In this document: positions 9,996-22,285 of the stretch, piece by piece
Layout: the number at the start of each line of letters is the position of its first letter
Position numbering within the stretch: position 1 is the first letter of the stretch
NCBI GenBank assembly: GCA_037445065.1
Contig: JBBILD010000010.1
Location: 64,001 to 128,000 of the forward strand
Direction: 5' to 3'
Length of the DNA: 64,000 nucleotides
DNA from: Myxococcales bacterium
Lineage (GTDB): Bacteria > Desulfobacterota > Binatia > HRBIN30
Translations under genes and position numbers: made by a program
The notes under the pieces: generated by a model
The model's input: only the letters and a program-made list of their open reading frames with translations
Database searches by the model: none
What the model was told of the DNA's origin: nothing

Positions 9996-11288
9996 TCAAG
10001 GACTGGCGCCGTCCAACCCCAAGGCACGCAGCGCTTGCTCCCGACGGGCAGGCAGGAACTCCGGAGGCCACAGCCCCTCGTAAGGCTGAAAGCCCTTGAG
10101 CACTTGCCGCGCCACGGTCACCTTGTGCACCTCTGTGGGGCCATCGGCCACCGCCAACGCTGCCGCCGCAACCCACCACTGCATCAGCGGCAGTTCGTTC
10201 GAACACCCCAGAGCACCGTGCAAGTGGATCGCCCGGCGCACGACGTCATGCAGCACTTCGGCCATTTGTGCCTTCACGGCCGCAATGTACAAGCGCGCCG
10301 CATCGCGCAGCCCCTGGTCAATTTGCCAGGCCGTGAACAACACGAGCAGGCGAAACTGTTCGATCTGCACGAAGGAGTCCGCGATCATTTGCTGCACCAA
10401 CTGCTTGTTGGCGAGCACTTCTCCCTGAGTGCGGCGGCTCAGCGCCCTGTGACACATCATTTCCAGCGCTCGTTTCACCAGCCCGACCGTGCGCATCGCG
10501 TGGTGGATGCGCCCCCCTCCGAGCCGGGTCTGCGCAATGATGAAGCCCTGGCCCTCGCCGCCGAGCAAGTTCTCCTCCGGAAGCCGGCAATTCTCGAAGC
10601 GCACCAAGCAGTGGTGGCCTTGGCCGAGCGGTTCGGTTCCCAGACCGGCGCGGCGCACGATCTCCATCCCCGCCGTGCCGCGCGGGACCAGGAACATGGA
10701 CGATCCCTGGTGCACAGGCCGCTCAGGATTCGTAATCGCCATGACGATCAGGAACTCGGCCAAGTCGGCGTGCGAGGCAAAGTACTTTTCTCCCTGCAAC
10801 ACCCACTCGTGGCCATCCCGGCGAGCACGGCAGCAAAACTCGCGCGGATCGCTGCCCCCTTGTGGCTCGGTCATGGCGAAGCAAGACACGATCTCTCCAG
10901 CCAACAGCGGCTCCAAGTAACGCTTTTTCTGTTCCTCCGTTCCGTACACGGCCAGGATCTCCGCGTTCCCCGAGTCAGGCGCCTGGCAGCCAAAAATCGC
11001 CGGGGCCCATTGCGAGCGGCCGAGGATCTCGTTCATGAGCGCCAATTTCACCTGCCCGTAACCGGGCCCGCCCAGTTCGGGTCCGAGGTGGCACGCCCAT
11101 AACCCCTGTCTGCGCACTTCCTGCTTGAGCGGCTCCGTCAAGCGCCTCAGCAACGGGTCCCTTCGATCGTACGGTGCGGCGGGGTCCGGAAACGCCACGT
11201 CCAGTGGCTCTACCTTGCTGCGCACGAACTCATCCATCCACTCGAGCTTTCGCTGAAATTCCGCTTCGGTCGAAAAGTCCCACGCCAT
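9996..11288 (-). CDS. Acyl-CoA dehydrogenase (ACAD10/11-like group)
   Basis: Motifs GCQAPDSGNAEIL, FAMTEPQGGSD, AQTRLGGGRIHHAMR and ADGPTEVH. Confidence 0.92.
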   Translation of the reverse strand: MAWDFSTEAEFQRKLEWMDEFVRSKVEPLDVAFPDPAAPYDRRDPLLRRLTEPLKQEVRRQGLWACHLGPELGGPGYGQVKLALMNEILGRSQWAPAIFGCQAPDSGNAEILAVYGTEEQKKRYLEPLLAGEIVSCFAMTEPQGGSDPREFCCRARRDGHEWVLQGEKYFASHADLAEFLIVMAITNPERPVHQGSSMFLVPRGTAGMEIVRRAGLGTEPLGQGHHCLVRFENCRLPEENLLGGEGQGFIIAQTRLGGGRIHHAMRTVGLVKRALEMMCHRALSRRTQGEVLANKQLVQQMIADSFVQIEQFRLLVLFTAWQIDQGLRDAARLYIAAVKAQMAEVLHDVVRRAIHLHGALGCSNELPLMQWWVAAAALAVADGPTEVHKVTVARQVLKGFQPYEGLWPPEFLPARREQALRALGLDGASP

Positions 11289-11384
11289 GGCTCTCTCGCT
11301 CCTTCCGATCCCTCATCCGCAAGCTGCATACCCGAGGCGCAGACGTACGCTCAAGCACGCCAAGCCAGTGTACGGGTGCCGCCG

Positions 11385-11423
11385 AAAACAAAAAGGCCAG
11401 CCTCCCGGAGGAAGCTGGCCTTT
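11385..11423 (-). terminator. Rho-independent terminator downstream of the Cys-rich secreted gene
   Basis: The minus strand reads AAAGGCCAGCTTCC-TCCG-GGAGGCTGGCC followed by TTTTTGTTTT, about 30 nt after the stop at 11453. Confidence 0.8.
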
Positions 11424-11452
11424 CCACTACCGGCTGCCACTGCAAGGGATCG

Positions 11453-11944
11453 TTACGGGGCCGGCACGCTAAGGACTAAGCCGTCACAGTGGGGCAAGTT
11501 TCCAATCCGCGCCTCGGCTGCGTCGAGAACCGCAGCGCAGCGATCCGCGCAGCCATCCACGTCGAAGGAATCCCTCGATTGGGCGAGGCGATCGCACCGT
11601 TCCTCACATTTCGCAGCGCGCAGTCGCGCCTTGACGATTTGCGCCATACACCGAGTCGGGTCACTCACCGACGGGCTGGCAGTCCCGGTACAGATCGGGC
11701 GAGCGGAGATCGCCAAGATGCGGGCGTCAAAACGGTCTTGGCACTGCGACTGGCACGAGGCCAGCGTAGCCGGATCCGTTGTCCCGTTTTCGCAACGGGA
11801 AGAGCACTGGTAGAAGCGGGCCTGCGCCTGGAGTTTGGCCCGGTAACAGGGCAGCGGGTCCGGCGCCGCGCTGGCAGCGGAGGTAAGCAGCAGGGACAAA
11901 GCCGCGATGGTGGTTAGGGTCAGCGTTCGGTTGATCGGTTCCAT
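11453..11944 (-). CDS. Secreted cysteine-rich protein with two internal 6-Cys repeats (unknown function)
   Basis: AAGGAG ribosome-binding site, signal peptide ending ASA-A, 12 Cys in two similarly spaced blocks, and its own terminator. Confidence 0.8.
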   Translation of the reverse strand: MEPINRTLTLTTIAALSLLLTSAASAAPDPLPCYRAKLQAQARFYQCSSRCENGTTDPATLASCQSQCQDRFDARILAISARPICTGTASPSVSDPTRCMAQIVKARLRAAKCEERCDRLAQSRDSFDVDGCADRCAAVLDAAEARIGNLPHCDGLVLSVPAP

Positions 11945-12024
11945 GGTCTTCTCCTTTTCGAGGGTTTCGGGTTGCGAAGTCTTCGATCTTGTCGGCCGGC
12001 ATCAGATCGCTTGGCAGAAACCGA

Positions 12025-12042
12025 AACCAAGTACCGTGCCAA
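12025..12042 (-). promoter_or_regulatory. Putative sigma54 (-24/-12) promoter for the Cys-rich gene
   Basis: The minus strand reads TTGGCACGGTACTTGGTT: an exact TGGCACG -24 box with correct GG-N10 spacing, but TTGG rather than TTGC at -12. It is divergent from a sigma54 activator gene. Confidence 0.6.
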
Positions 12043-12195
12043 CGACTTTCTTCGCACTGGCCACAGGGTTCGGCCCGGGCAGGCGGGCCCACTCGTCCGC
12101 TTGCCCGGACAAGCGGCTGATTTTCCAGAATCGTTCCTCAAAAAAACTCCTACATCGGCTTTCGCTCCAGCGCCAGGAAGCGTAGGCTGCATGGT

Positions 12196-13740
12196 ATGAT
12201 TTTCCGAGGGGCAGCGACCGCCGCTCCGGAACGACTCGAGCAGGAACGCGACTTTTACCGGCACTTGCTCGAGCACAGCCCGGAGCAAGAACCCACTTCC
12301 TTCTTTCAGGACAGCCTCGCCTTTCTGACCGAACTCACAGGTGCAGCCCACGGCTACCTCGAACTGTTTCCGGCGGACACGGCGCACCCGGCTCACCCAT
12401 GGTTCGCTGCTCGTGGGTTGTCGGGAGGAGCCTTGGAGCAAGTGCGGGAGATCGTCTCGCGTGGCATTGTGGCGCAGGCGATTTCTTCCGGGTCCACGAT
12501 TGTCACCCCTGCCGCCTTCTTGGACCCGCGTTTCAACTCCTTTGCCAGCGTGGCGCAGCACCGAATGGGTGCTGTCCTGTGCACCCCAATTGGAAACGAC
12601 CCGCCGCTCGGCGTCCTCTATCTGTACGGCCACAGCAAGCCTGCAGGCTTTTGCGAACCAGACGTTGCTTTGGCGGAGCTGCTCGCCCGCCATTTAGTTC
12701 CGGTTGCAGAGCGACTGTTGGCCAAAGGCGCGACTCCAACCGAAGACAGCACGCGTGAGGTCCGCGCGCGGCTCAAGGCAAGCGGCATCGTAGGGCGGAG
12801 TGCAGCGCTCGGGCGGGTGCTCGAGCAAGTGGCAATGGTGGCAGGACTCGACGTGAGCGTCTTGTTCACCGGCGAGTCGGGTACAGGCAAGAGCCAAATG
12901 GCCCGCCTGCTGCACGACAACAGCCATCGCAGTCCCTTCCCGTTCGTCGAACTCAACTGCGCCGCACTGCCCGACACCCTGCTCGAAAGCGAGTTATTCG
13001 GTGCCGCTGCTGGCGCCCATTCGACTGCCGACCGTGCCTACGAAGGCAAGGTACAAGCGGCAGAGCGCGGCACGTTGCTGCTCGACGAAGTGGGAGAACT
13101 CTCCCTCCCGGCGCAAGCCAAGCTCTTACAGCTCCTCGACACACGCGAGTACTTCCCGCTGGGGAGTAACAAGCGGCGCAAGGCGGACGTGCGCATCGTC
13201 GCTGCCACCAACTGCGACCTGCGCTCGGCGGTCAAAGAGCACCGCTTTCGCGAGGATCTATTCTATCGACTGAACGTCCTCTCGATCGCCTTGCCCTCGC
13301 TTGCTGAGCGGCGGGACGACATTGCCGAGCTCGCCGAGGCCTTTTGCCGCAACGCATGCGTGCGTCATTCTTTGCCCGAGCTTCGCTTGTCGCGCAATGC
13401 GCTGCGCGCGCTCGAAGCCGCCGAGTGGCCCGGCAACGTGCGCCAGCTCCTGCACGTGGTAGAAGTCGGCACGATTCGCGCAGGGAGCGAAGGCGTGCAC
13501 CAGGCAGAGGTCAGACACCTCTTCCCCGAATCCGACGAGGGCACGGAAGGGAGGACTCCGGCCCCGGAATCCAACCTCACTTTCCAAGCGGCCACGCGCC
13601 GCTTCCAGGCTCAATTCATCCGTACCGTCCTCGAAGAAACGAATTGGAACGTGCCCGAGGCTGCTCGCCGCCTCGATATGGCCCGCTCGCACTTGTATTC
13701 GCTGATCCGCGCATTCGGCCTGGGGCGGCCTCAGTCCTGA
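12196..13740 (+). CDS. Sigma54-dependent enhancer-binding protein (GAF-AAA+-Fis HTH)
   Basis: GAF region (SRGIV...LDPRF..FASV...AVLCTP), Walker A GESGTGKS, ELNCAA, ESELFG-AAA-GAHSTA, LLLDEVGEL, FREDLFYRL, WPGNVRQL, and C-terminal HTH WNVPEAARRL. Confidence 0.93.
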   Translation: MIFRGAATAAPERLEQERDFYRHLLEHSPEQEPTSFFQDSLAFLTELTGAAHGYLELFPADTAHPAHPWFAARGLSGGALEQVREIVSRGIVAQAISSGSTIVTPAAFLDPRFNSFASVAQHRMGAVLCTPIGNDPPLGVLYLYGHSKPAGFCEPDVALAELLARHLVPVAERLLAKGATPTEDSTREVRARLKASGIVGRSAALGRVLEQVAMVAGLDVSVLFTGESGTGKSQMARLLHDNSHRSPFPFVELNCAALPDTLLESELFGAAAGAHSTADRAYEGKVQAAERGTLLLDEVGELSLPAQAKLLQLLDTREYFPLGSNKRRKADVRIVAATNCDLRSAVKEHRFREDLFYRLNVLSIALPSLAERRDDIAELAEAFCRNACVRHSLPELRLSRNALRALEAAEWPGNVRQLLHVVEVGTIRAGSEGVHQAEVRHLFPESDEGTEGRTPAPESNLTFQAATRRFQAQFIRTVLEETNWNVPEAARRLDMARSHLYSLIRAFGLGRPQS

Positions 13741-13774
13741 GTGACCCCACAGCTTCCGAAAAACACCCGCTCTC

Positions 13775-16700
13775 ATGTTCCCCGACCACCCCCGCTTCCG
13801 GCAACTCTCCTTTTTGGGGGGCGGCAGCTTCGGGGTCGTGTTCCGAGCGTACGACGAGGAACTCGCGCTGGAGGTTGCGTTGAAAACCCTCATCGAGGCG
13901 AACGATGCCGACTTCTACGTCCTCAAACGCGAGTTTCGCCTCGTGGCTGACGTTCGCCACCAGAACCTGATCGAGTTGTTCGAGCTGTTCGTTTCTACAT
14001 CCGGGCAACCGTTTTTCACCATGGAGTTCGTCTCCGGACTGCCTTTCAACCAAGCTGTGCAATGGCGCCGACGGGAGCGGCCCCCGGTTGCAGCGGATGG
14101 CAACGCTGGCCCCGAAGAAGCTGTTGTCAATCGCATTCACCAGCTGATTGCCGCCGTGCACTGCCTGCATGTGGCCGGAGTGATGCACTGCGATATCAAG
14201 CCTTCGAACGTGCTCGTGCAGGACACGGGCCGGGTGGTGGTGCTCGATTTTGGACTCGCCAAGCGCATCGTTCCGGTTAATCCATTGCTGCGCGTGAGCA
14301 CCGGAGGAACGTGGGCCTACATGGCTCCCGAACTGGCCCTTGGCGAAACCGCTACGGAAGTGACCGACTGGTACAGCGTGGCTGCCCTCGTGTACGAGAC
14401 CGTCACCGGCGTCCCCCCGTTTCGCGGCGCTCCGTTCGAAATGCTGCAACAAAAGAGGCAGTGGGCCGCCAAGAAGTCCCTTTCTCCCGCCCTACCAATC
14501 CCAAAGCTGATGTGGGAGATGGTGCTCGCTGGCCTCGACCCTGACCCCAGGCTGCGCCCGGAGGAAGAAGACTGGGCAGAACTCATCGGTGCGCACGCGG
14601 CACCTGCCGAGCCTCGGGCTCCTGTTCTGCAAACCCGGAACGTGTTCGTGGGGCGGGATGAGGAGCGAGCCAAACTCGACGCGGCGTTCTGGCGAGTTCT
14701 CCAAGGCTACCCGGCAACCGTGCACGTAACGGGGCCGGCAGGCATTGGGAAGACACAGCTGATCGAGCACTTTTTGGAGAGTTTACCGAACCGCCACACC
14801 GCCTGCGTTTTGCACGGCCGCTGCAACCCCGCCGAGGCGGTGCCCTTCAATGCCTTCGACGGAATCGCGGACGAGCTGGCTGCGGTCCTGACCGAGCTTC
14901 CCGGCGAACAGCGCCCGCAACTTTCGCCCGATCAATGGAAGGACCTCGTTACTCTCTTCCCGGTGCTGCGCGCCCTGTCATCGCAAGACGCCGCTCGCGC
15001 GGATCCCACCCCCTCGCGCCGTCCCATCGAAGAACGCCGGAGTGGCTTTGCCGCATTCCGAGCCTTGCTGGATCGCCTTTCTCGCCTCATGCCGGTGGTG
15101 GTGTGGATCGAAGACCTGCACTGGGCGGACGCAGATAGCCACGTGCTGCTCCACGCGGTGCTGCGGGGTGTCCACCAACCCTCCTTGCTGCTGATCCTGA
15201 GCTACCGGAAGGAGTCAGACTCCATCGGCTTGCTTTCCGAACCGGGGACCGCCACGCCTGGCGCCCAACCTGCCTGGGAGGAGCGGATTTCTCTCGAGCC
15301 GTTGCCTCCCGCCCAAGCGCGGCTGCTCGCCGAGCACTACCAGCGTACAGCGAATGCGTGCGCGACAACGGATCTCGAGCCTCTCCTCTACGAGGCGGGA
15401 GGGTCGCCCCTGCTCATCGTACAACTGCTGGCTCATGCCCGCGCAGGCGGCGCGGGGCGTTCCTCATCCGCATCGCCCTCGCTGGGGCGGATCCTCACAG
15501 AACGGCTGCGTGCACTACCCCTGCCCGGACGGCTGATGGTGGAGGCAGCCGTGGTGGCTGGCCACCCAGTGCCAAAGCAAGCCCTCATCGAGGCTGGAGG
15601 CATCGGTGAAAAGGGCCGGCTCGCACTGCGCCAAGCCGAGATCGGAAGGCAGCTGCGCATGCTCCCGGGTCGCGGCGACACCGAAGTGGACGTGTTTCAC
15701 CAGCGGGTCGGCGAAGCTTTGCTCGTTTCGATTCCTGCGCCAACCCGCGCCGCACACCATTCGTTTTGGCTGCGCTGCGCTTTAATCCAAGGGGAGCAAG
15801 ACCCCGAACGCGTCTTGCTCCATGCTCTCGGTGCGGGCGAAACCCGCACCGCCGCAGAGTGGGCGGCTCGGGCAGCCCAACGGGCGGAGGGCAACCTGGC
15901 CTTTGCGCACGCAGCCGACCTCTATGGGCAAGCTCTTACCCTGGCAACGTGGCCACCCGCGCAGGCGCTCGAACTCGAGCAGCGGCGAGCAGAAGCCTTG
16001 GTATCCGCGGGCCGCGGGGCAGAAGCAGCGCCGTTGTTTGCGGCCGTCTCCACCCACGCCCAGGGCAAGGAACGGGATGTGTTCTTGCAGCGGGCCGCAG
16101 AGCAGTACCTCGTCAGCGGGCTTTTGGGTGAAGGAACCGCGGTCCTGCGCGAGGTGCTGCGCAACGCCAAACTCCCCTACCCGCGTAGTGGTACGGCAGC
16201 CTCGCTTCGCGTCCTCGGGCGGATCGTCCGCTCGTACTGGAAGCCGCGCCTGGGGTGGGGTCCACGGCGCGCTGGGGCAAACCGCTGGCGGGTGCAACTC
16301 GAGGCGGCGGAGTCTGCAGCCAAAGGCCTCGCCTTTGTAGATCCCCTGCGCGGTCAGTACTTCGCGCTGCGCCGCCTCGCCGCCGCTAAGGCGCTGGGGG
16401 ACCAGGAGCAACTCGCTCTTGCCCTCTGTACCACGGGCGCCACGTTGTTGCCCATTCGCGGTCCGTTTTCCCGCTGGGCGCGCCGCCTGATCGCCGAAGG
16501 TTGCAGCTTAGCCGAGTCGCAGGCAAGTCCATACGTGCGCGCAACGGTTTGCCAAACTCTCGCGCAAGTATCCATGCTCGAATGCCGCTGGAACGAGATG
16601 TCCACTCTGTGCGAAGAGGCCCTTGGCCTTTTGCAGCGTCACTGCCCGCGCCAACGCTGGGAAGTCGCCGTCGCTACGATGGCCAAGCTCCGCGCAGAGG

Positions 16701-17458
16701 ATGAACTCGGTCGCATCGAAGCCTTGCGCCGCGATGCCTGGGAATGGCTCGAGCAGGCCAGCGCGCTCGGTGACCGCTACTCCGCTTGCGTCGCCTGGGA
16801 GTACTTCGGTTGGGCCTGCCTGCTGTTCGGTGACACTGCCACCGCGCGGCACGCCGTGCAGCGAGTGGAGGCACTTTGGATCCCAGCGGGGTTTCAGATG
16901 CAACATTTCTACGCCGCCCGACTGAGTGCCTATGCCGAGCTGGTGGACGGGCGTCCCGAAGCTGCCTGGGAACGAGCACAGGTGCTTTGGCAGAACGCTC
17001 GCGCGCATGGCCTACTCCGCCACGTCCTCCTCGGCCTCGATGCCGATCTGTTGCTCTTGCGCACCTGGGCCGCCCACGGGGCAGCCTTGGGTCACGGCAC
17101 CACCCGCCCGCCGCGCTGGCTTGCGCGGCGCGCCGCCGCTTTGCGCAAGAGCCCGCGCGCCGACGCTCGCGGCTATACCGCACTGGTCGAAGCCGGCAGT
17201 GCGGCCCTGCGGGGGAATGCAGAGGTCGCACGTGCGCAGTTGGCCGAGGCCGCCACCTGTTTCGAGGCGGCTCAAATGAGCTTGGCCCACCGCCTCGCCA
17301 CCTACCTGATCGGACCAAATGAGGTCACGGGACTGGCGCAACGCCCGCTTTGCACGGCCAGCACCGAGCAAACCAGCGCAAACCGACCCGATCTGCGGCT
17401 TCTCACACGCGTCTTCGCGCCCGGATTCGTTCGTGCCCCCCACTTTGACCGAGCCTGA
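13775..17458 (+). CDS. Hanks-type Ser/Thr kinase fused to an AAA/STAND ATPase and a helical TPR-like C-terminus
   Basis: Kinase motifs LGGGSFGVV, VALK, HCDIKPSN, DFG, GTWAYMAPE and DWYS. ATPase motifs FVGRDEE, GPAGIGKT, VVVWIEDLHWAD and GGSPL. Ala-rich helical tail. Confidence 0.9.
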   Translation: MFPDHPRFRQLSFLGGGSFGVVFRAYDEELALEVALKTLIEANDADFYVLKREFRLVADVRHQNLIELFELFVSTSGQPFFTMEFVSGLPFNQAVQWRRRERPPVAADGNAGPEEAVVNRIHQLIAAVHCLHVAGVMHCDIKPSNVLVQDTGRVVVLDFGLAKRIVPVNPLLRVSTGGTWAYMAPELALGETATEVTDWYSVAALVYETVTGVPPFRGAPFEMLQQKRQWAAKKSLSPALPIPKLMWEMVLAGLDPDPRLRPEEEDWAELIGAHAAPAEPRAPVLQTRNVFVGRDEERAKLDAAFWRVLQGYPATVHVTGPAGIGKTQLIEHFLESLPNRHTACVLHGRCNPAEAVPFNAFDGIADELAAVLTELPGEQRPQLSPDQWKDLVTLFPVLRALSSQDAARADPTPSRRPIEERRSGFAAFRALLDRLSRLMPVVVWIEDLHWADADSHVLLHAVLRGVHQPSLLLILSYRKESDSIGLLSEPGTATPGAQPAWEERISLEPLPPAQARLLAEHYQRTANACATTDLEPLLYEAGGSPLLIVQLLAHARAGGAGRSSSASPSLGRILTERLRALPLPGRLMVEAAVVAGHPVPKQALIEAGGIGEKGRLALRQAEIGRQLRMLPGRGDTEVDVFHQRVGEALLVSIPAPTRAAHHSFWLRCALIQGEQDPERVLLHALGAGETRTAAEWAARAAQRAEGNLAFAHAADLYGQALTLATWPPAQALELEQRRAEALVSAGRGAEAAPLFAAVSTHAQGKERDVFLQRAAEQYLVSGLLGEGTAVLREVLRNAKLPYPRSGTAASLRVLGRIVRSYWKPRLGWGPRRAGANRWRVQLEAAESAAKGLAFVDPLRGQYFALRRLAAAKALGDQEQLALALCTTGATLLPIRGPFSRWARRLIAEGCSLAESQASPYVRATVCQTLAQVSMLECRWNEMSTLCEEALGLLQRHCPRQRWEVAVATMAKLRAEDELGRIEALRRDAWEWLEQASALGDRYSACVAWEYFGWACLLFGDTATARHAVQRVEALWIPAGFQMQHFYAARLSAYAELVDGRPEAAWERAQVLWQNARAHGLLRHVLLGLDADLLLLRTWAAHGAALGHGTTRPPRWLARRAAALRKSPRADARGYTALVEAGSAALRGNAEVARAQLAEAATCFEAAQMSLAHRLATYLIGPNEVTGLAQRPLCTASTEQTSANRPDLRLLTRVFAPGFVRAPHFDRA

Positions 17459-17502: not shown

Positions 17503-18657
17503 ATGTACGAGCCAGGAGAGGACATTTACGGCAGTCCGGAGCACCGCGCGTTTCGCGACACGGTGCGGCGCTTCGTGCAAACCGAACTCGTGCCGCGAGC
17601 CCGCGAGTTCGACAAAATGGGCCGCATCGACAAGTCGCTCTACCGCAAGATGGGGCAGCTGGGCTTGCTCGGTATCCGCTACGACCCCAAGTACGGTGGC
17701 CTCGGGCTGGACTACTCCTACCACGCCATTTTTCTCGAAGAGATCGCCCTGTGCGACAATGCCGGCGTGGCCATGGGCATCTCGGTGCAAACCGACATGG
17801 CCACCCCCGCCTTGCATCGTTTCGGCAGCGAAGAACTCAAGCAGAAGTACCTGGTGCCTGCGATTCGCGGCGAAATGGTGGCGGCGATCGCGGTGACCGA
17901 ACCTGGAGCCGGCTCCGACGTGGCGCGCATTCAGACCCGCGCCGTGCGTGACGGCGATTACTGGGTGATCAACGGCTCGAAAATGTACATTACCAACGCG
18001 GCAACGGCGGACTGGCTGTGCTTGCTTGCGGTCACCGATCCGGAAGCTGGGTACAACGGCTTCACCCAAATCATCGTACCCACCGATACGCCGGGGTTCA
18101 GCTACAAGCTACTCGACAAAATCGGCAACATTGGCTCGGACACTGGGCTCTTGTTCTTCGACGATGTGCGCGTGCCGATCACCAACACCATTGGCGACCC
18201 CAGCCGCGGCTTCCAGCAACAAATGATGCAGTTTCAAGATGAACGCATGGTGCCGGTGGTCATGTCGCCGGTGCAGGCGCGGCAACTGTGGGAGATCACA
18301 CTCAAACACTGCCAGGAGCGGGTGGTGTTCGGAAAACCCTTGTCCAAGCATCAGGTAAACCAGCACCGCTTCGTGGACATGCTGATCCAAATCACCGCGG
18401 CGCAGGAGTTGGCTTACCGCTGCATCCGCCTCATGCAAAGCGGTGTGGACGCGACCAAGGAAATCTCCATGGCCAAGGTCTTCAACTCGAACATGCTGCA
18501 GTACGTAGCGACCACCTGCCTGCAACTCTTCGGGGGCGCCGGGTACTGCTGGGAGAATCCTGCCGCTCGCGCTTTCGTAGATTCACGCCTGCTGACCATT
18601 GGCGGCGGCGCGGACGAGGTGATGAAGCAAATCGTCGCCAAGCTGCTGCAAATCTGA
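17503..18657 (+). CDS. Acyl-CoA dehydrogenase (citronellyl-CoA dehydrogenase AtuD-like)
   Basis: Motifs [37 protein letters not shown] and IGGGADEVM; first gene of the carboxylase cluster. Confidence 0.88.
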
Positions 18658-18670
18658 GCCCGCGCTGGCC

Positions 18671-20266
18671 ATGCCTGTTTTGCCGACCCGCATCGACCCC
18701 AAGTCCGAAGCCTTCCGCAGCAACTACCAGGCAATGCTCGAGCAAGTGCGCTTTCTCGAAGAGCAGCTTGCTCTGGCGCGCGCGGGAGGGGGCGAGAAGT
18801 ACGTGCAACGCCACCGGGAACGCGGCAAGCTCTTGCCGCGCGAGCGGATCGAGTTGCTGCTCGATCGGGACTCTCCGTTCCTCGAACTCTCACCGCTGGC
18901 GGCCTGGGGCACCGAGTACACGGTGGGAGCGGGTGTGGTCACGGGAATCGGGGTGGTCAGCGGCGTCGAGTGCGTCATTGTCGCCAACGATCCGACCGTC
19001 AAAGGCGGCGCGATCAACCCGTACGGCCTGCAAAAGAACCTGCGGGCCATGGAAATTGCAGCCAAGAACCGCCTCCCCCTGATCAACCTCACCGAGTCGG
19101 CCGGGGCAGACCTCCCCGTGCAAGCGCAAATCTTCGTGCCCGGAGGCAAGACCTTCCGCGAACTCACGCGTCGCTCGGCAGAGCGCATCCCCACCATTTG
19201 CCTCGTGTTCGGAAGCTCCACTGCCGGAGGCGCCTACGTGCCGGGCATGTCGGACTACGTGGTGATGGTCAAAGGGCAAGCCAAGGTTTTCCTCGGCGGG
19301 CCGCCACTGGTGAAAATGGCCACCAACGAGGATGCCGACGAAGAAACCCTAGGCGGAGCCGAGATGCACAGCCGCGTCTCCGGGGTATCGGACTACTTGG
19401 CCGAGGATGAGTACGATGCCATCCGCATCGGGCGCGAGATCGTTGCTCACCTGAACTGGCGCAAGCTCGGCGAAGCGCGGCTGCAGCAACCGGAAGACCC
19501 TCGGTACGACCCGGATGAGCTTCTCGGCATCGGTTCGATGGATTTGCGCAAACCGTTCGAGGTGCGCGAAGTGATTGCGCGCATCGTAGATGGCTCGCGA
19601 TTCGAGGAATTCAAAGCCAACTACGGCACAACCCTGGTCACTGGTTGGGCTCACCTACACGGGTTCCCGCTCGGCATCGTCGCCAACAACGGGATTTTGT
19701 TTTCCGAATCCTCGCAAAAGGCGGCCCAATTCATCCAGCTCTGCAACAAGATCGACGTGCCGATTTTGTTCTTGCAAAACATCACCGGCTACATGGTCGG
19801 GGTCCAGTACGAACAAGGGGGGATCATCAAGGACGGCGCAAAAATGATCAACGCGGTCGCGAACTCTACCGTGCCGATGTTTACCGTGATGATCGGCAGC
19901 TCCTACGGAGCCGGCAATTACGGAATGTGTGGGCGGGCCTACGACCCGCGCTTTTTGTTTACCTGGCCCAACCACCGCATCGCGGTGATGGGTCCGGAAC
20001 AGCTTGCCGGGGTCATGTCCATCGTGCGCCGTCAAGCGGCCGAGCGCGCTGGCCAAACCTATGACGAGGAGCAAGACCGGCTCGTGCGGCAGATGGTCAT
20101 CGAACAAATCGAGAAGGAGTCCAACGCGTTTTATGCAACCGCCCGCATCTGGGACGATGGTATCATTGACCCGCGCCAGACGCGCAACGTACTGGCCATC
20201 GCCCTCAGCGCATCCTTCAGCAACTTGGTGCGCGGCACCGATACCTACGGTGTGTTCCGGATGTGA
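18671..20266 (+). CDS. Acyl-CoA carboxylase beta (carboxyltransferase) subunit, geranyl-CoA carboxylase AtuC-like
   Basis: Motifs [58 protein letters not shown] and a C-terminal GVFRM. Confidence 0.9.
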
Positions 20267-20284
20267 GCGAGCAGGACGGAGAGT

Positions 20285-22285
20285 ATGAAACCCATCCGCA
20301 AAGTATTGGTGGCAAACCGCGGGGAGATCGCACGGCGCATTTTCCGCGCCTGCCGTGCCCTCGGCTTCGAAACCGTAGCCGTGTATGCCGACCCTGATCG
20401 CGAGGCACCGTTCGTACGCGAGGCGGACGAGGCAGTCTACATCGGCTCGCCGGTCACCGGCGGATCGTTTCTGGCATTCGAAGCGATTTTGCACGCCGCG
20501 GCGCTCACCGGCGCCGATGCTGTGCATCCTGGCTACGGTTTTCTGGCAGAAAACGCAGACTTCGCGGAAGCCTGCGAACGACAAGGTCTTTGTTTTGTGG
20601 GGCCGCCGGTTGCAGCAATCCGTGCCATGGGCACCAAAATCGATGCGAAAACCATCGCCCAAAACGCTGGCGTACCGATCATTCCGGGCTTTTCTGCTGC
20701 CGGGCTCAGCGACGAGGAGATCGTGCGCAGAGCGCGCCAGTTGCGCTTTCCCCTCCTGGTCAAAGCCTCGGCCGGTGGCGGGGGAAAAGGCATGCGCCGG
20801 GTGGACTCACCGGAGGCTCTGGCGGCGGCGCTGGCTCCGGCGCGGCGAGAGGCACAAGCCGCTTTCGGTGACGACACGTTGCTGATCGAGCGATACATCG
20901 AACATCCGCGCCACATCGAAATCCAAATTTTTGGCGACCAGCACGGAAACATCGTGCACTTGTTCGAGCGCGAGTGCTCCATCCAACGCCGCTACCAAAA
21001 AATCATCGAGGAGGCACCTTCGCCTTTCGTCAACGATGTGTTGCGCGAGCGCATGGGGGCAGCCGCCGTCGCACTCGCTCGTAGCCTCGGGTACTACAGC
21101 GCCGGGACCGTCGAGTTCGTGGTCGACCGCGATGGGAACTTTTACTTCCTCGAGGTCAACACGCGCCTGCAAGTCGAGCATCCCGTCACCGAAGAAATCA
21201 CCGGCATCGATCTAGTCCAGCTCCAGTTCTCCGTGGCGCAAGGGGAGCCACTCCCGTTTGCGCAAGAAGACTTGTGCATCTCCGGGCATGCGATCGAGGC
21301 GCGCTTGTACGCGGAAGATCCCGAACACGATTTCTTGCCGTCTACCGGCACACTGGCCGTTTGGCAACCGCGCCCAAGCACCGGAGTTCGCTACGAAAGC
21401 GGAGTGGAGGCCGGGTCCGCGGTCACCATTCACTACGACCCGATGCTCGCCAAGATCATTGCCCGCGGCTCTCATCGCACCCAGGCCATACGCCGCTTGC
21501 GCACGGCGCTGGCCTCGCTGCGGGTCCACGGCGTGCGCACCAACCGCGACTTCTTGCTTGCCATTCTGGACCATCCGGAATTTGCCGCCGGAGCCACCGA
21601 CACCCACTTTATCCCCCGCCACTTCCCGACGTTCTCGCGCAACCAAACCGGGCAGACCGATCGCTTGCATGCCCTCGCCGCCGCACTCTGGGAACAAGCC
21701 GAACGGCGCCGCGCCTCGCCTGTGCTGCGCTCTCTACCCTCCGGCTGGCGCAACAACCCGAGCCAACGGCAGTGGTGCGAGTACGCCGCCGGAGCCGACA
21801 CAGTACGGGTGGAGTACCGAGTCCTGGAGCGGGGAGAGGTCGAGGCGCTCGTGAACGGCGCACCTCACAACGCCCGCATCGTGAGCGCGGATGGCGCTGG
21901 TATCGCGCTCGAGGTGGACCAGGTGCGCCGCTACTTCGAGGTGGTGGCACAAGGAGAATGGCGGTACGTAGACAGCGTCCTGGGCAGCAGCGCCTTGCGG
22001 GAGCTACCGCGCTTCCCGGAACCGCAGAGCGAGCGGGTGGAGGGCGGCTGCAGCGCGCCGATGCCAGGCAAAATCATTGACGTGCGCGTGCGCGCCGGAG
22101 ACCGGGTCCGCCGTGGCGACGTGCTGGTCATCCTGGAGGCCATGAAGATGGAACACGAAGTCAGTGCGCCTGCCGACGGCGTGGTGCGCGAGGTGCGGGT
22201 CGAGGTTGGGCAACAAGTGGAAGCCGGAAGTCTCCTAGTCGTACTGGAGGAAACCACCAGTGAGGAGGGAAGAGCCAATGAGTGA
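20285..22285 (+). CDS. Acyl-CoA carboxylase alpha subunit (biotin carboxylase + BCCP), AtuF/LiuD-like
   Basis: Motifs VLVANRGEIA, HPGYGFLAEN, GGGGKGMR, ERECSIQRR, FLEVNTRLQVEHPVTE and the biotinylation site EAMKME. Confidence 0.93.
   Translation: MKPIRKVLVANRGEIARRIFRACRALGFETVAVYADPDREAPFVREADEAVYIGSPVTGGSFLAFEAILHAAALTGADAVHPGYGFLAENADFAEACERQGLCFVGPPVAAIRAMGTKIDAKTIAQNAGVPIIPGFSAAGLSDEEIVRRARQLRFPLLVKASAGGGGKGMRRVDSPEALAAALAPARREAQAAFGDDTLLIERYIEHPRHIEIQIFGDQHGNIVHLFERECSIQRRYQKIIEEAPSPFVNDVLRERMGAAAVALARSLGYYSAGTVEFVVDRDGNFYFLEVNTRLQVEHPVTEEITGIDLVQLQFSVAQGEPLPFAQEDLCISGHAIEARLYAEDPEHDFLPSTGTLAVWQPRPSTGVRYESGVEAGSAVTIHYDPMLAKIIARGSHRTQAIRRLRTALASLRVHGVRTNRDFLLAILDHPEFAAGATDTHFIPRHFPTFSRNQTGQTDRLHALAAALWEQAERRRASPVLRSLPSGWRNNPSQRQWCEYAAGADTVRVEYRVLERGEVEALVNGAPHNARIVSADGAGIALEVDQVRRYFEVVAQGEWRYVDSVLGSSALRELPRFPEPQSERVEGGCSAPMPGKIIDVRVRAGDRVRRGDVLVILEAMKMEHEVSAPADGVVREVRVEVGQQVEAGSLLVVLEETTSEEGRANE

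Follow-up and report, generated by a model that had tools for sequence, protein, structure and literature searches.

A conserved three-gene module suggests a kinase-STAND input to a sigma54 activator with a His-Ser loop and a divergent exported Cys-rich target

We analysed a window of 64,000 nucleotides (the whole stretch from position 64,001 to 128,000 of contig JBBILD010000010.1, assembly GCA_037445065.1) from an uncultured Myxococcales bacterium of soil or the subsurface, assigned by GTDB to Binatia, HRBIN30. The window contains a conserved module in which the gene of a sigma54-type enhancer-binding protein (EBP) is followed by that of a large Ser/Thr-kinase/STAND protein, and a gene for a small, probably exported Cys-rich protein runs divergently from both. 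We put it at about an even chance that the kinase-STAND protein is the signal input of the sigma54 activator, which in turn would drive the Cys-rich protein. According to the open reading frame (ORF) list, translations and Pfam, the Cys-rich gene (11453-11944, reverse strand) encodes 163 aa with 12 Cys, the EBP gene (12196-13740, forward strand) encodes 514 aa with a GAF-AAA+-helix-turn-helix (HTH) build, and the kinase-STAND gene (13775-17458, forward strand) encodes 1227 aa comprising a Ser/Thr kinase, a STAND part and a helical solenoid. The EBP stop codon (13740) and the kinase ATG (13775) are separated by 34 nt. A first-pass annotation of this DNA had described an activator 34 bp 5' of a 1227-aa gene and a divergent 12-Cys gene, and the ORF coordinates agree with it exactly. 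It had also stated that histidine-kinase, receiver and FHA domains are missing; likewise, Pfam finds none of these families in the three proteins at E<=0.01.

The trio is retained beyond the window's genome. Orthologues of the Cys-rich protein are present in all five genomes of a sister genus (g9) of the same taxonomic family, and all five keep the order Cys(-)/EBP(+)/kinase(+); their outer flanks differ from those of the window. Identities between the g9 and window proteins are 31-42% for the Cys-rich protein, 55-57% for the EBP, and 36-38% for the kinase-STAND protein. A profile of 39 Cys-family members has matches in 15 of the 52 genomes of the order, three of them weak and one genome left out, and these include a second taxonomic family (f4), where the full trio occurs in G444 and G447. 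Hence, the co-conservation check named in the first-pass annotation turned out in favour of the module, which two genera of one family retain and which another family has as well. An EBP with the His-Ser loop described below is found in all 11 assessed genomes with a strong Cys-family match, being adjacent to the Cys gene in nine, 13 kb away in G039, and on another contig in G448. Four genomes (G444, G447, G448, and G039) have a Cys paralogue in another, conserved neighbourhood that lacks an EBP and carries the same promoter. Beyond the order, the Cys family was beside GAHSTA-type EBPs in none of 80 loci by tblastn, no credible match to it was found by hidden Markov model in 94 such loci, and in a phylum sample of 401 genomes only the window's own genome matched (0/400 others). 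Our own degenerate pattern for distant family members in metagenomes gave one chance match (L170), a locus without a family member.

Two side observations concern the surroundings of these Cys genes. In one g9 locus (L014, G024), a 3.9-kb insertion with a 786-aa ORF lies between the Cys gene and the EBP gene (oriented coordinates 10143-14062), and the promoter remains with the Cys gene. The unlinked f4 paralogues (L190, L193, L194, and L195) are flanked, as judged from N-terminal sequences only, by an SMP-30/gluconolactonase-like gene on the upstream side and, downstream, by genes for a 225-aa protein and an amidohydrolase-like protein of ~563 aa.

The Cys-rich gene is preceded by a sigma54-type promoter (TTGGCACGGTACTTGG; 12027-12042, reverse strand), in which the -24 GG is present and the -12 element is TTGG, not TTGC; the first T of this sequence is 98 nt from the ATG of the Cys gene. 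The site TGGCACGGTACTTGG (12027-12041, reverse strand) has a single mismatch to TGGCAC-N5-TTGC, at the -12 C. Sites with at most two mismatches to this consensus number 104 in the window versus 90.7 expected from shuffles, so that the promoter alone is at chance level; we regard it as real because it is conserved in orthologous loci. Specifically, TTGGCAC(G/A)-N4-TTG is located 98-125 nt before the ATG in six of six orthologous Cys genes (the window and five from g9), and TGGCACG-N4-TTG[G/A/T] lies upstream of 13 of the 14 Cys-family genes, four of which have no EBP linkage. The only gene without the site is the second one of a tandem pair in G445. At the -12 C position, the 13 sites have G in six cases, A in four, T in three, and C in none. 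Sequence conservation thus marks the Cys-family site as a sigma54-type promoter whose -12 element systematically departs from the consensus. The window's genome has a single rpoN gene and thereby sigma54, as well as a -24/-12 promoter at the target, though with a non-consensus base at -12. These findings bear out the -24/-12-like divergent promoter of the first-pass annotation, and its claim that the Cys gene has its own terminator is borne out as well by a strong, GC-rich hairpin with a U-tract 3' of the gene (11381-11434, reverse strand). The RNA fold of 11380-11455 (reverse strand) has an energy of -40.2 kcal/mol (z -4.65), and none of 200 shuffles is as good. A simple terminator scan did not list this hairpin.

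Other elements of the region were inspected. A perfect dyad from the inverted-repeat listing, CCGCTTG-N6-CAAGCGG (12097-12116, either strand), lies ~55-75 bp upstream of the -24 box and might be an activator-binding site, which is a guess. Rfam has no match on 11300-12300 at E<=1. A search for more regulon members in the window's genome gave 18 strict TGGCAC-N5-TTG sites, none convincing except the window's own. The leaders of the g9 Cys genes (L010-L014) share an element, (A)CCGGCTC-N3-CCGAGCAA...ACTGGCCAG, between promoter and start codon. It consists of a small hairpin and the palindrome CTGGCCAG, is absent from the window's leader, and could be a regulatory RNA or a protein-binding site.

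The EBP belongs to the sigma54-interaction AAA+ domain family, matching positions 1-167 of the 168 in the PF00158 profile. Its Pfam domains are GAF_2 (32-167), Sigma54_activat (198-364, E 6e-60), AAA_lid_14, and HTH_8 (469-501). The Walker A (GESGTGKS), Walker B (LLLDEVGE), FREDLFYRL, and GNVRQL motifs are intact, the first three being conserved in the alignment. It shares 52-57% identity with seven orthologues, and its GAF domain is well conserved, with DPRFN...C.PIG invariant in eight of eight sequences. The NCBIfam equivalog cut-offs are not reached (NorR, 309 bits vs 476; NifA, 283 vs 529). Where GAFTGA is expected, the L1 loop reads GAHSTA (residues 273-278; 13012-13029, forward strand) and thus lacks the Phe and Thr of the motif. 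GAHSTA is invariant in all eight aligned EBPs, namely those of the window and the five g9 genomes and two further homologues. The f4 EBPs adjoining Cys genes have GGHSQA or DSHSRA, so the conserved core of the loop is His-Ser. In the window's genome, the remaining 11 EBPs have G[AS]FT[GD]A, leaving GAHSTA in only one of 12. This loop lowers the standing of the protein as a canonical EBP, not its standing as one that works with sigma54. A full-text literature search for 'GAHSTA' returned nothing relevant. Aside from these proteins, P0004, a metagenome protein of 1312 aa, is 51% identical to the window EBP over 96% of the latter. It has an N-terminal region and a kinase-like domain without the catalytic Asp (HGALKPGN), fused to a GAF-EBP with a deleted L1 loop, and looks like a degenerate, possibly sigma54-independent derivative of the His-Ser clade.

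EBPs with this loop are widespread. A back-translated ESELFG-x3-GAHSTA pattern has at least 120 matches in one-genome-per-species contigs. The matches listed are mostly metagenome-assembled genomes (MAGs) labelled Polyangia or Myxococcales, along with Sorangium, Labilithrix, Nannocystis, and Candidatus Binatia; the best named EBP records among them are mostly from Ca. Binatia, the top match being a Thermodesulfobacteriota MAG (L063). Full-length GAF-AAA+-HTH homologues are present in 46 of 80 loci examined. Among relatives of the window's genome, the pattern occurs in 20 of 41 genomes and 14 of 27 genera, nearly always once per genome. When one mismatch to TGGCAC-N5-TTG is allowed (GG fixed), the sites of 60 loci have a density of 0.48/kb in the 760 nt around the EBP start versus 0.14/kb overall, and 19 of the 21 such sites are on the divergent strand, typically 120-450 nt from the EBP start. 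With its sites enriched and divergently oriented, the His-Ser clade resembles, its loop notwithstanding, ordinary EBPs that have divergent sigma54 targets. By raw sequence reading, the genes behind these sites vary with lineage and encode a secreted protein, a small membrane protein with an amidase-like gene after it, a receiver protein, or sigma70-region-4-like small proteins. Most divergent sites beside the other GAHSTA EBPs have a normal TTGC or TGC element. For this reason, we rejected, as a general rule, that the His-Ser loop and a TTGG-type -12 element strictly co-vary.

Some loci of the clade have arrangements of their own. In L163 and L167 (G010 and G013), divergent sigma54-type sites precede the small sigma70-region-4-like proteins (...EELAELLGVPVETVRHIERQALRKL), which hints at a possible sigma-factor cascade; in L167, a 509-aa open frame follows, having 18 Cys and an internal Met before a signal-peptide-like stretch. 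L169 (G025:C23:72800-92790) has two GAHSTA-type EBP genes of 505 and 510 aa on the same strand, 1.5 kb apart, with a 425-aa gene on the opposite strand between them.

The kinase-STAND protein contains Pkinase (9-220, E 2.6e-36) and AAA_16 (291-474, E 7.5e-25) matches. The Hanks-type kinase (residues 9-263) has the GGGSFG, VALK, HCDIKPSN, DFG, and APE motifs, and all 11 aligned homologues have the catalytic Lys, Asp, and Asn. The window kinase has HCD (non-RD) where the 10 homologues have HRD. In profile comparison, the kinase matches PknB at E 1.8e-48 (PknB/PknA, E ~1e-48). The kinase is followed by a STAND NOD (residues 291-474; GPAGIGKT, IEDLHWAD), a winged helix, and a solenoid of ~25 helices. 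By sequence, residues 285-1227 match none of the solved chains. Their AlphaFold2 (AF2) model, with a predicted local distance difference test score (pLDDT) of 81.5 and a predicted TM-score (pTM) of 0.80, displays the P-loop NOD, the winged helix, and the solenoid. Its top Foldseek matches are the TPR-STAND protein 6mfv (E 4e-10), Avs3, SAMD9, NLRP9, Apaf-1, CED-4, and MalT (8bob_C). The protein hence has all the parts of a STAND NTPase, namely the NOD, the winged helix, a C-terminal repeat sensor, and an effector at one end, and its N-terminal kinase is the predicted effector domain. The first-pass reading of this protein as kinase, STAND ATPase, and helical repeats thus stands, with Hanks motifs, AF2 model, and Foldseek in agreement.

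We then examined how closely the kinase is tied to the activator. Their genes overlap by 1-4 nt in g9. In the 3.8-Mb genome of the window, only four Pkinase matches pass the cut-off, and the best one adjoins the only GAHSTA EBP. A kinase is immediately adjacent to 12 of 35 full-length GAHSTA EBPs and within two genes of 17. Around these 35 EBPs, kinases make up 18 of 117 genes within two positions versus 6 of 161 farther genes (odds ratio 4.7, Fisher p 9e-4), with the loci non-independent and the genes called by our own heuristic based on G+C at third codon positions (GC3). A kinase-STAND homologue adjoins the GAHSTA EBP in 5 of 14 non-g9 relatives. Longer EBP homologues number 6025 proteins at E<=1e-20, and in the best 120 of them, ~106 have Pkinase and Sigma54_activat on one chain, most of these with AAA_16, TPR, and GAF as well. 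Such one-chain proteins (Pkinase, AAA_16, TPR, GAF, Sigma54_activat, HTH_8; e.g., a Sorangium 'sigma 54-interacting transcriptional regulator') have the same domain types as the two window genes, whereas the window has these parts on two separate genes, that of the EBP coming first. For instance, residues 15-315 of P0044 from Sorangium align to the window kinase protein, and residues 1172-1660 to the EBP, with a canonical GAFTGA. Because its likeness to the kinase protein extends no farther than the kinase domain and the beginning of the NOD, P0044 is an architecture match and not an orthologous fusion. As architectural analogues rather than orthologous fusions, these proteins argue that kinase-STAND and GAF-EBP modules may cooperate physically. 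A complex prediction for residues 640-1227 of the kinase protein with residues 1-195 of the EBP, made without control runs, scored 0.00. Elsewhere in the window's genome, a second EBP (loop GSFTGA, open frame 776 aa) is ~4 kb from a weak Pkinase match (34.6 bits, open frame 750 aa), the EBP/kinase positions being G000:C6:223101-223811 (+) and C6:227478-227804 (-). This may be another kinase-EBP pairing, or chance.

The translation of the Cys-rich gene starts with a signal-peptide-like stretch, which appears to be of the Sec type and has no twin-arginine motif. The 12 Cys are arranged in two repeats of C-x13-C-x3-C-x12/14-C-x3-C-x16-C, that is, two twin-CX3C helical hairpins. No Pfam or NCBIfam family matches the protein. 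A search of 1.84 billion proteins yields 55 representatives of its family at E<=0.001. Family members span 155-180 aa and carry a signal peptide. All 12 Cys are invariant in six of six orthologues, and at least 90% conserved among 39 family members. These 12-Cys double-hairpin proteins, with their predicted export, are a small new family as defined from sequence. The AF2 model has two helical hairpins (block pLDDT 87-96), whose mutual packing is uncertain (pTM 0.42). In each predicted hairpin, one CX3C faces the other and a third Cys pair is located at the open end. Only two family members lack any motif Cys, and the losses fall in predicted pairs (C47 with C68, and C113 with C136), which fits the predicted disulfide staples. 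Foldseek against the PDB gave no match at E<=0.001. Its weak rows include the walnut Jug r 2 vicilin-buried CX3C peptide on one hairpin (prob 0.93, TMt 0.81, 34 columns, E 4.9) and the Cys-lined copper-storage bundles Csp3 (5nqm and 5nqn) and Csp (6ei0), with E 4.6-5.7 and TM ~0.25. A wide VIA-align search found generic helical hairpins only (best Z 7.8). In the ESM Atlas, the nearest clusters are unnamed (0.87-0.88) and labelled Ca. Binatota; together with the labels of the best EBP records, this makes it likely that the organism belongs to that lineage. The putatively stapled twin-CX3C hairpins may be akin to those of plant alpha-hairpinins, vicilin-buried peptides, and mitochondrial CHCH proteins. 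The predicted likeness to the alpha-hairpinin/CHCH type lies in the CX3C-loop-CX3C on an antiparallel helix pair; the Cys-rich protein differs in being bacterial and, by prediction, Sec-exported, in having two tandem hairpins, and in the third Cys pair of each. We would guess that it is a stable extracytoplasmic protein with a binding or inhibitory role, or else one of antimicrobial type.

As to the surroundings of the module, the window has a G+C content of 61-67% in 2-kb steps. Directly 3' of the kinase gene (17503-22285, forward strand), Pfam identifies isovaleryl-CoA dehydrogenase-like and methylcrotonyl-CoA carboxylase beta-like and alpha-like genes of leucine catabolism. An acyl-CoA dehydrogenase gene is on the other flank (9996-11288, reverse strand). 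These catabolic genes are not retained beside the module in g9.

From the anatomy, co-conservation, promoter, rpoN, STAND fold, kinase motifs, and enrichments observed, we infer every functional arrow of the circuit. By the STAND mode of action, the solenoid would sense a cytoplasmic ligand or protein, whereupon the NOD would switch and the kinase become activated. The co-expressed EBP would be the target of the kinase-STAND protein, through phosphorylation and/or NifL-like anti-activator binding, and GAF inhibition would be relieved. The EBP hexamer would then use ATP to open the closed complex of sigma54 and RNA polymerase at the divergent TGGCACG-N4-TTG[G/A/T], with presumed dependence on rpoN and the EBP. 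The monocistronic mRNA with its own terminator would finally yield a Sec-exported protein of ~135 aa having two disulfide-stapled twin-CX3C hairpins. The circuit is not fully self-contained as the first-pass annotation had it, in that the EBP-kinase pair is a widespread core with other divergent targets and the f4 Cys paralogues are unlinked.

Several observations weigh against this circuit. Nine of the 14 non-g9 relatives with a GAHSTA EBP have no adjacent kinase-STAND gene, and the enrichment of kinases near such EBPs is based on non-independent loci and heuristic gene calls. None of seven RNA runs is listed as containing the locus. G445 of f4 has two tandem Cys genes divergent from an EBP and no kinase within ~8 kb. 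The EBP has a GAF sensor of its own and could work without the kinase. Neither alignment nor k-mer search found a shared upstream activator motif above chance in six orthologous intergenic regions, and the dyad at 12097-12116 stays a guess for that reason. The remaining points concern the loop. In PspF, the loop residues Phe85 and Thr86 contact region I of sigma54, the loop also cross-links to -12/-11 DNA, and all six p-benzoyl-phenylalanine (pBpa) substitutions in the GAFTGA motif abolished open-complex formation (PMC3467059). A His-Ser loop is expected from these data to be impaired. Moreover, sigma54 cannot have co-adapted to GAHSTA alone, because the single rpoN also serves 11 canonical EBPs.

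The kinase-STAND protein might not be the input of the EBP at all, being merely co-transcribed or itself a regulated output, with the EBP sensing via its own GAF domain, as NorR and PexR do, and activating the Cys promoter. We hold this to be possible, if unlikely. The invariant GAF motif would fit such a role, as would the lack of an adjacent kinase-STAND gene in G445 and in the nine relatives, and a GAF-only EBP divergent from its target is known in PexR (PMC12754779). It sits poorly with the 1-4 nt overlap of the genes in g9, the enrichment of kinase genes beside GAHSTA EBPs, the frequent presence of kinase, AAA_16, GAF, and EBP families on one chain, and the location of the best Pkinase match of a kinase-poor genome at the module. 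The loop raises a different doubt. TyrR and Rhodobacter NtrC are sigma54-independent regulators, and the window EBP could likewise be a sigma54-independent regulator, repressor, or anti-activator whose His-Ser loop cannot engage sigma54, with another, canonical EBP firing the promoter. Its Sigma54_activat match is the lowest of the 11 strongest in the genome (205 bits vs 226-252; one weaker match has 167.8 bits), and the homologue P0004 has no loop altogether. The loop Phe is held essential in PMC3467059, and the tolerated loop variants listed in PMC4641369 include none with His at position 3. Nevertheless, we judge this reading rather improbable. The loop is strongly conserved (GAHSTA in 8/8; His-Ser core kept in GGHSQA and DSHSRA), sigma54-type sites are enriched and divergently oriented at these EBPs, and 13 of the 14 Cys-family genes have the site, with a His-Ser-loop EBP in all 11 assessed genomes. 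In addition, there is a precedent in D. vulgaris DVUA0100 (loop GVATGV), an EBP without the loop Phe that is predicted, not shown, to act at sigma54 promoters (PMC4641369). DVUA0100 differs from the window EBP in its loop and its input domains, and that paper reports no kinase partner for it.

The possible defence role raised by the first-pass annotation would make the module a STAND (Avs/NLR-like) anti-phage or stress system with the kinase as effector and the Cys-rich protein as toxic or protective output. The predicted fold of the STAND part is like that of Avs3 and NLR-type proteins, the PD-T4-6 and mad6 models pick up the kinase domain, and the module has different neighbourhoods in different genera. 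The PADLOC matches are, however, only to generic kinase (mad6, PD-T4-6) and RtcR-type AAA-HTH domain models and do not make the module a member of a defence system, MalT and the TPR-STAND protein match the STAND model at least as well, the module is conserved vertically within genera as a single copy, and its neighbours are catabolic, with no phage or mobile-element genes flanking it. A role in defence thus lacks specific support and appears very unlikely. A more far-reaching proposal about the loop is that the His-Ser-loop EBPs are a distinct mechanistic class, in which His-Ser replaces the Phe finger and a Ser/Thr-kinase/STAND partner gates the engagement of sigma54 or of the -12 fork junction. 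Such gating could work through phosphorylation, either at the loop Ser, which is invariant, or in the linker between GAF and AAA+ domains, and with the -12 C lost in the Cys regulon (0/13), the sigma54 lock normally broken by the Phe would be weaker. This is a decidedly speculative idea, which we doubt. If true, a eukaryote-like kinase input would be wired directly to the sigma54 opening step, and this would explain why kinase, AAA_16, GAF, and EBP domains are so often on one chain.

Several known systems resemble parts of the preferred circuit from kinase-STAND protein to EBP to Cys-rich protein. The GAF-type EBPs NorR, NifA, and M. xanthus PexR have the same GAF-AAA+-HTH build, and NorR and NifA give the best NCBIfam similarity of the window EBP, which differs from all three in its GAHSTA loop, its kinase-STAND partner gene, and its putative exported Cys-rich target. 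In NifL-NifA, an anti-activator is co-expressed with its GAF-EBP. Similarly, a large sensory partner gene and a GAF-EBP share one operon here, and g9 has the window-type pair in translational coupling; a Hanks kinase-STAND protein takes the place of the PAS/histidine-kinase-like partner, and the EBP gene comes first. The pexR-ahpC pair also has a divergent target with a sigma54 promoter (PMC12754779). M. tuberculosis PknK, a soluble Hanks kinase whose C-terminal region is of the STAND type, controls VirS, which acts on the nearby mymA operon (PMC4601284). There too, a kinase-STAND protein is paired with a transcription factor acting on a nearby operon (PMC4601284); the regulator of the window would be a sigma54 AAA+ activator, not an AraC protein.

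Every part of the module belongs to a known family; the novelty lies in how these parts are brought together with a conserved His-Ser loop, a promoter with a variant -12 element, and an exported Cys-rich family that is itself new. The textbook inputs of sigma54 activators are histidine kinases, small ligands, and anti-activators, and the GAFTGA Phe is treated as indispensable. The locus is a member of a large, unstudied His-Ser clade, with at least 120 genomic matches for GAHSTA alone, which has conserved sigma54-type promoters next door and a Hanks kinase-STAND protein as its commonest partner, encoded in a neighbouring gene or on the same chain. If the proposed circuit is true, a STAND sensor acting through a Ser/Thr kinase on an EBP would be a new input route to sigma54 control, and the rule that the loop Phe is essential would come into question. 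The Cys family provides a clean, single-gene read-out for the circuit. The conservation of this three-gene switch in an uncultured bacterium suggests a little-studied way of turning genes on.

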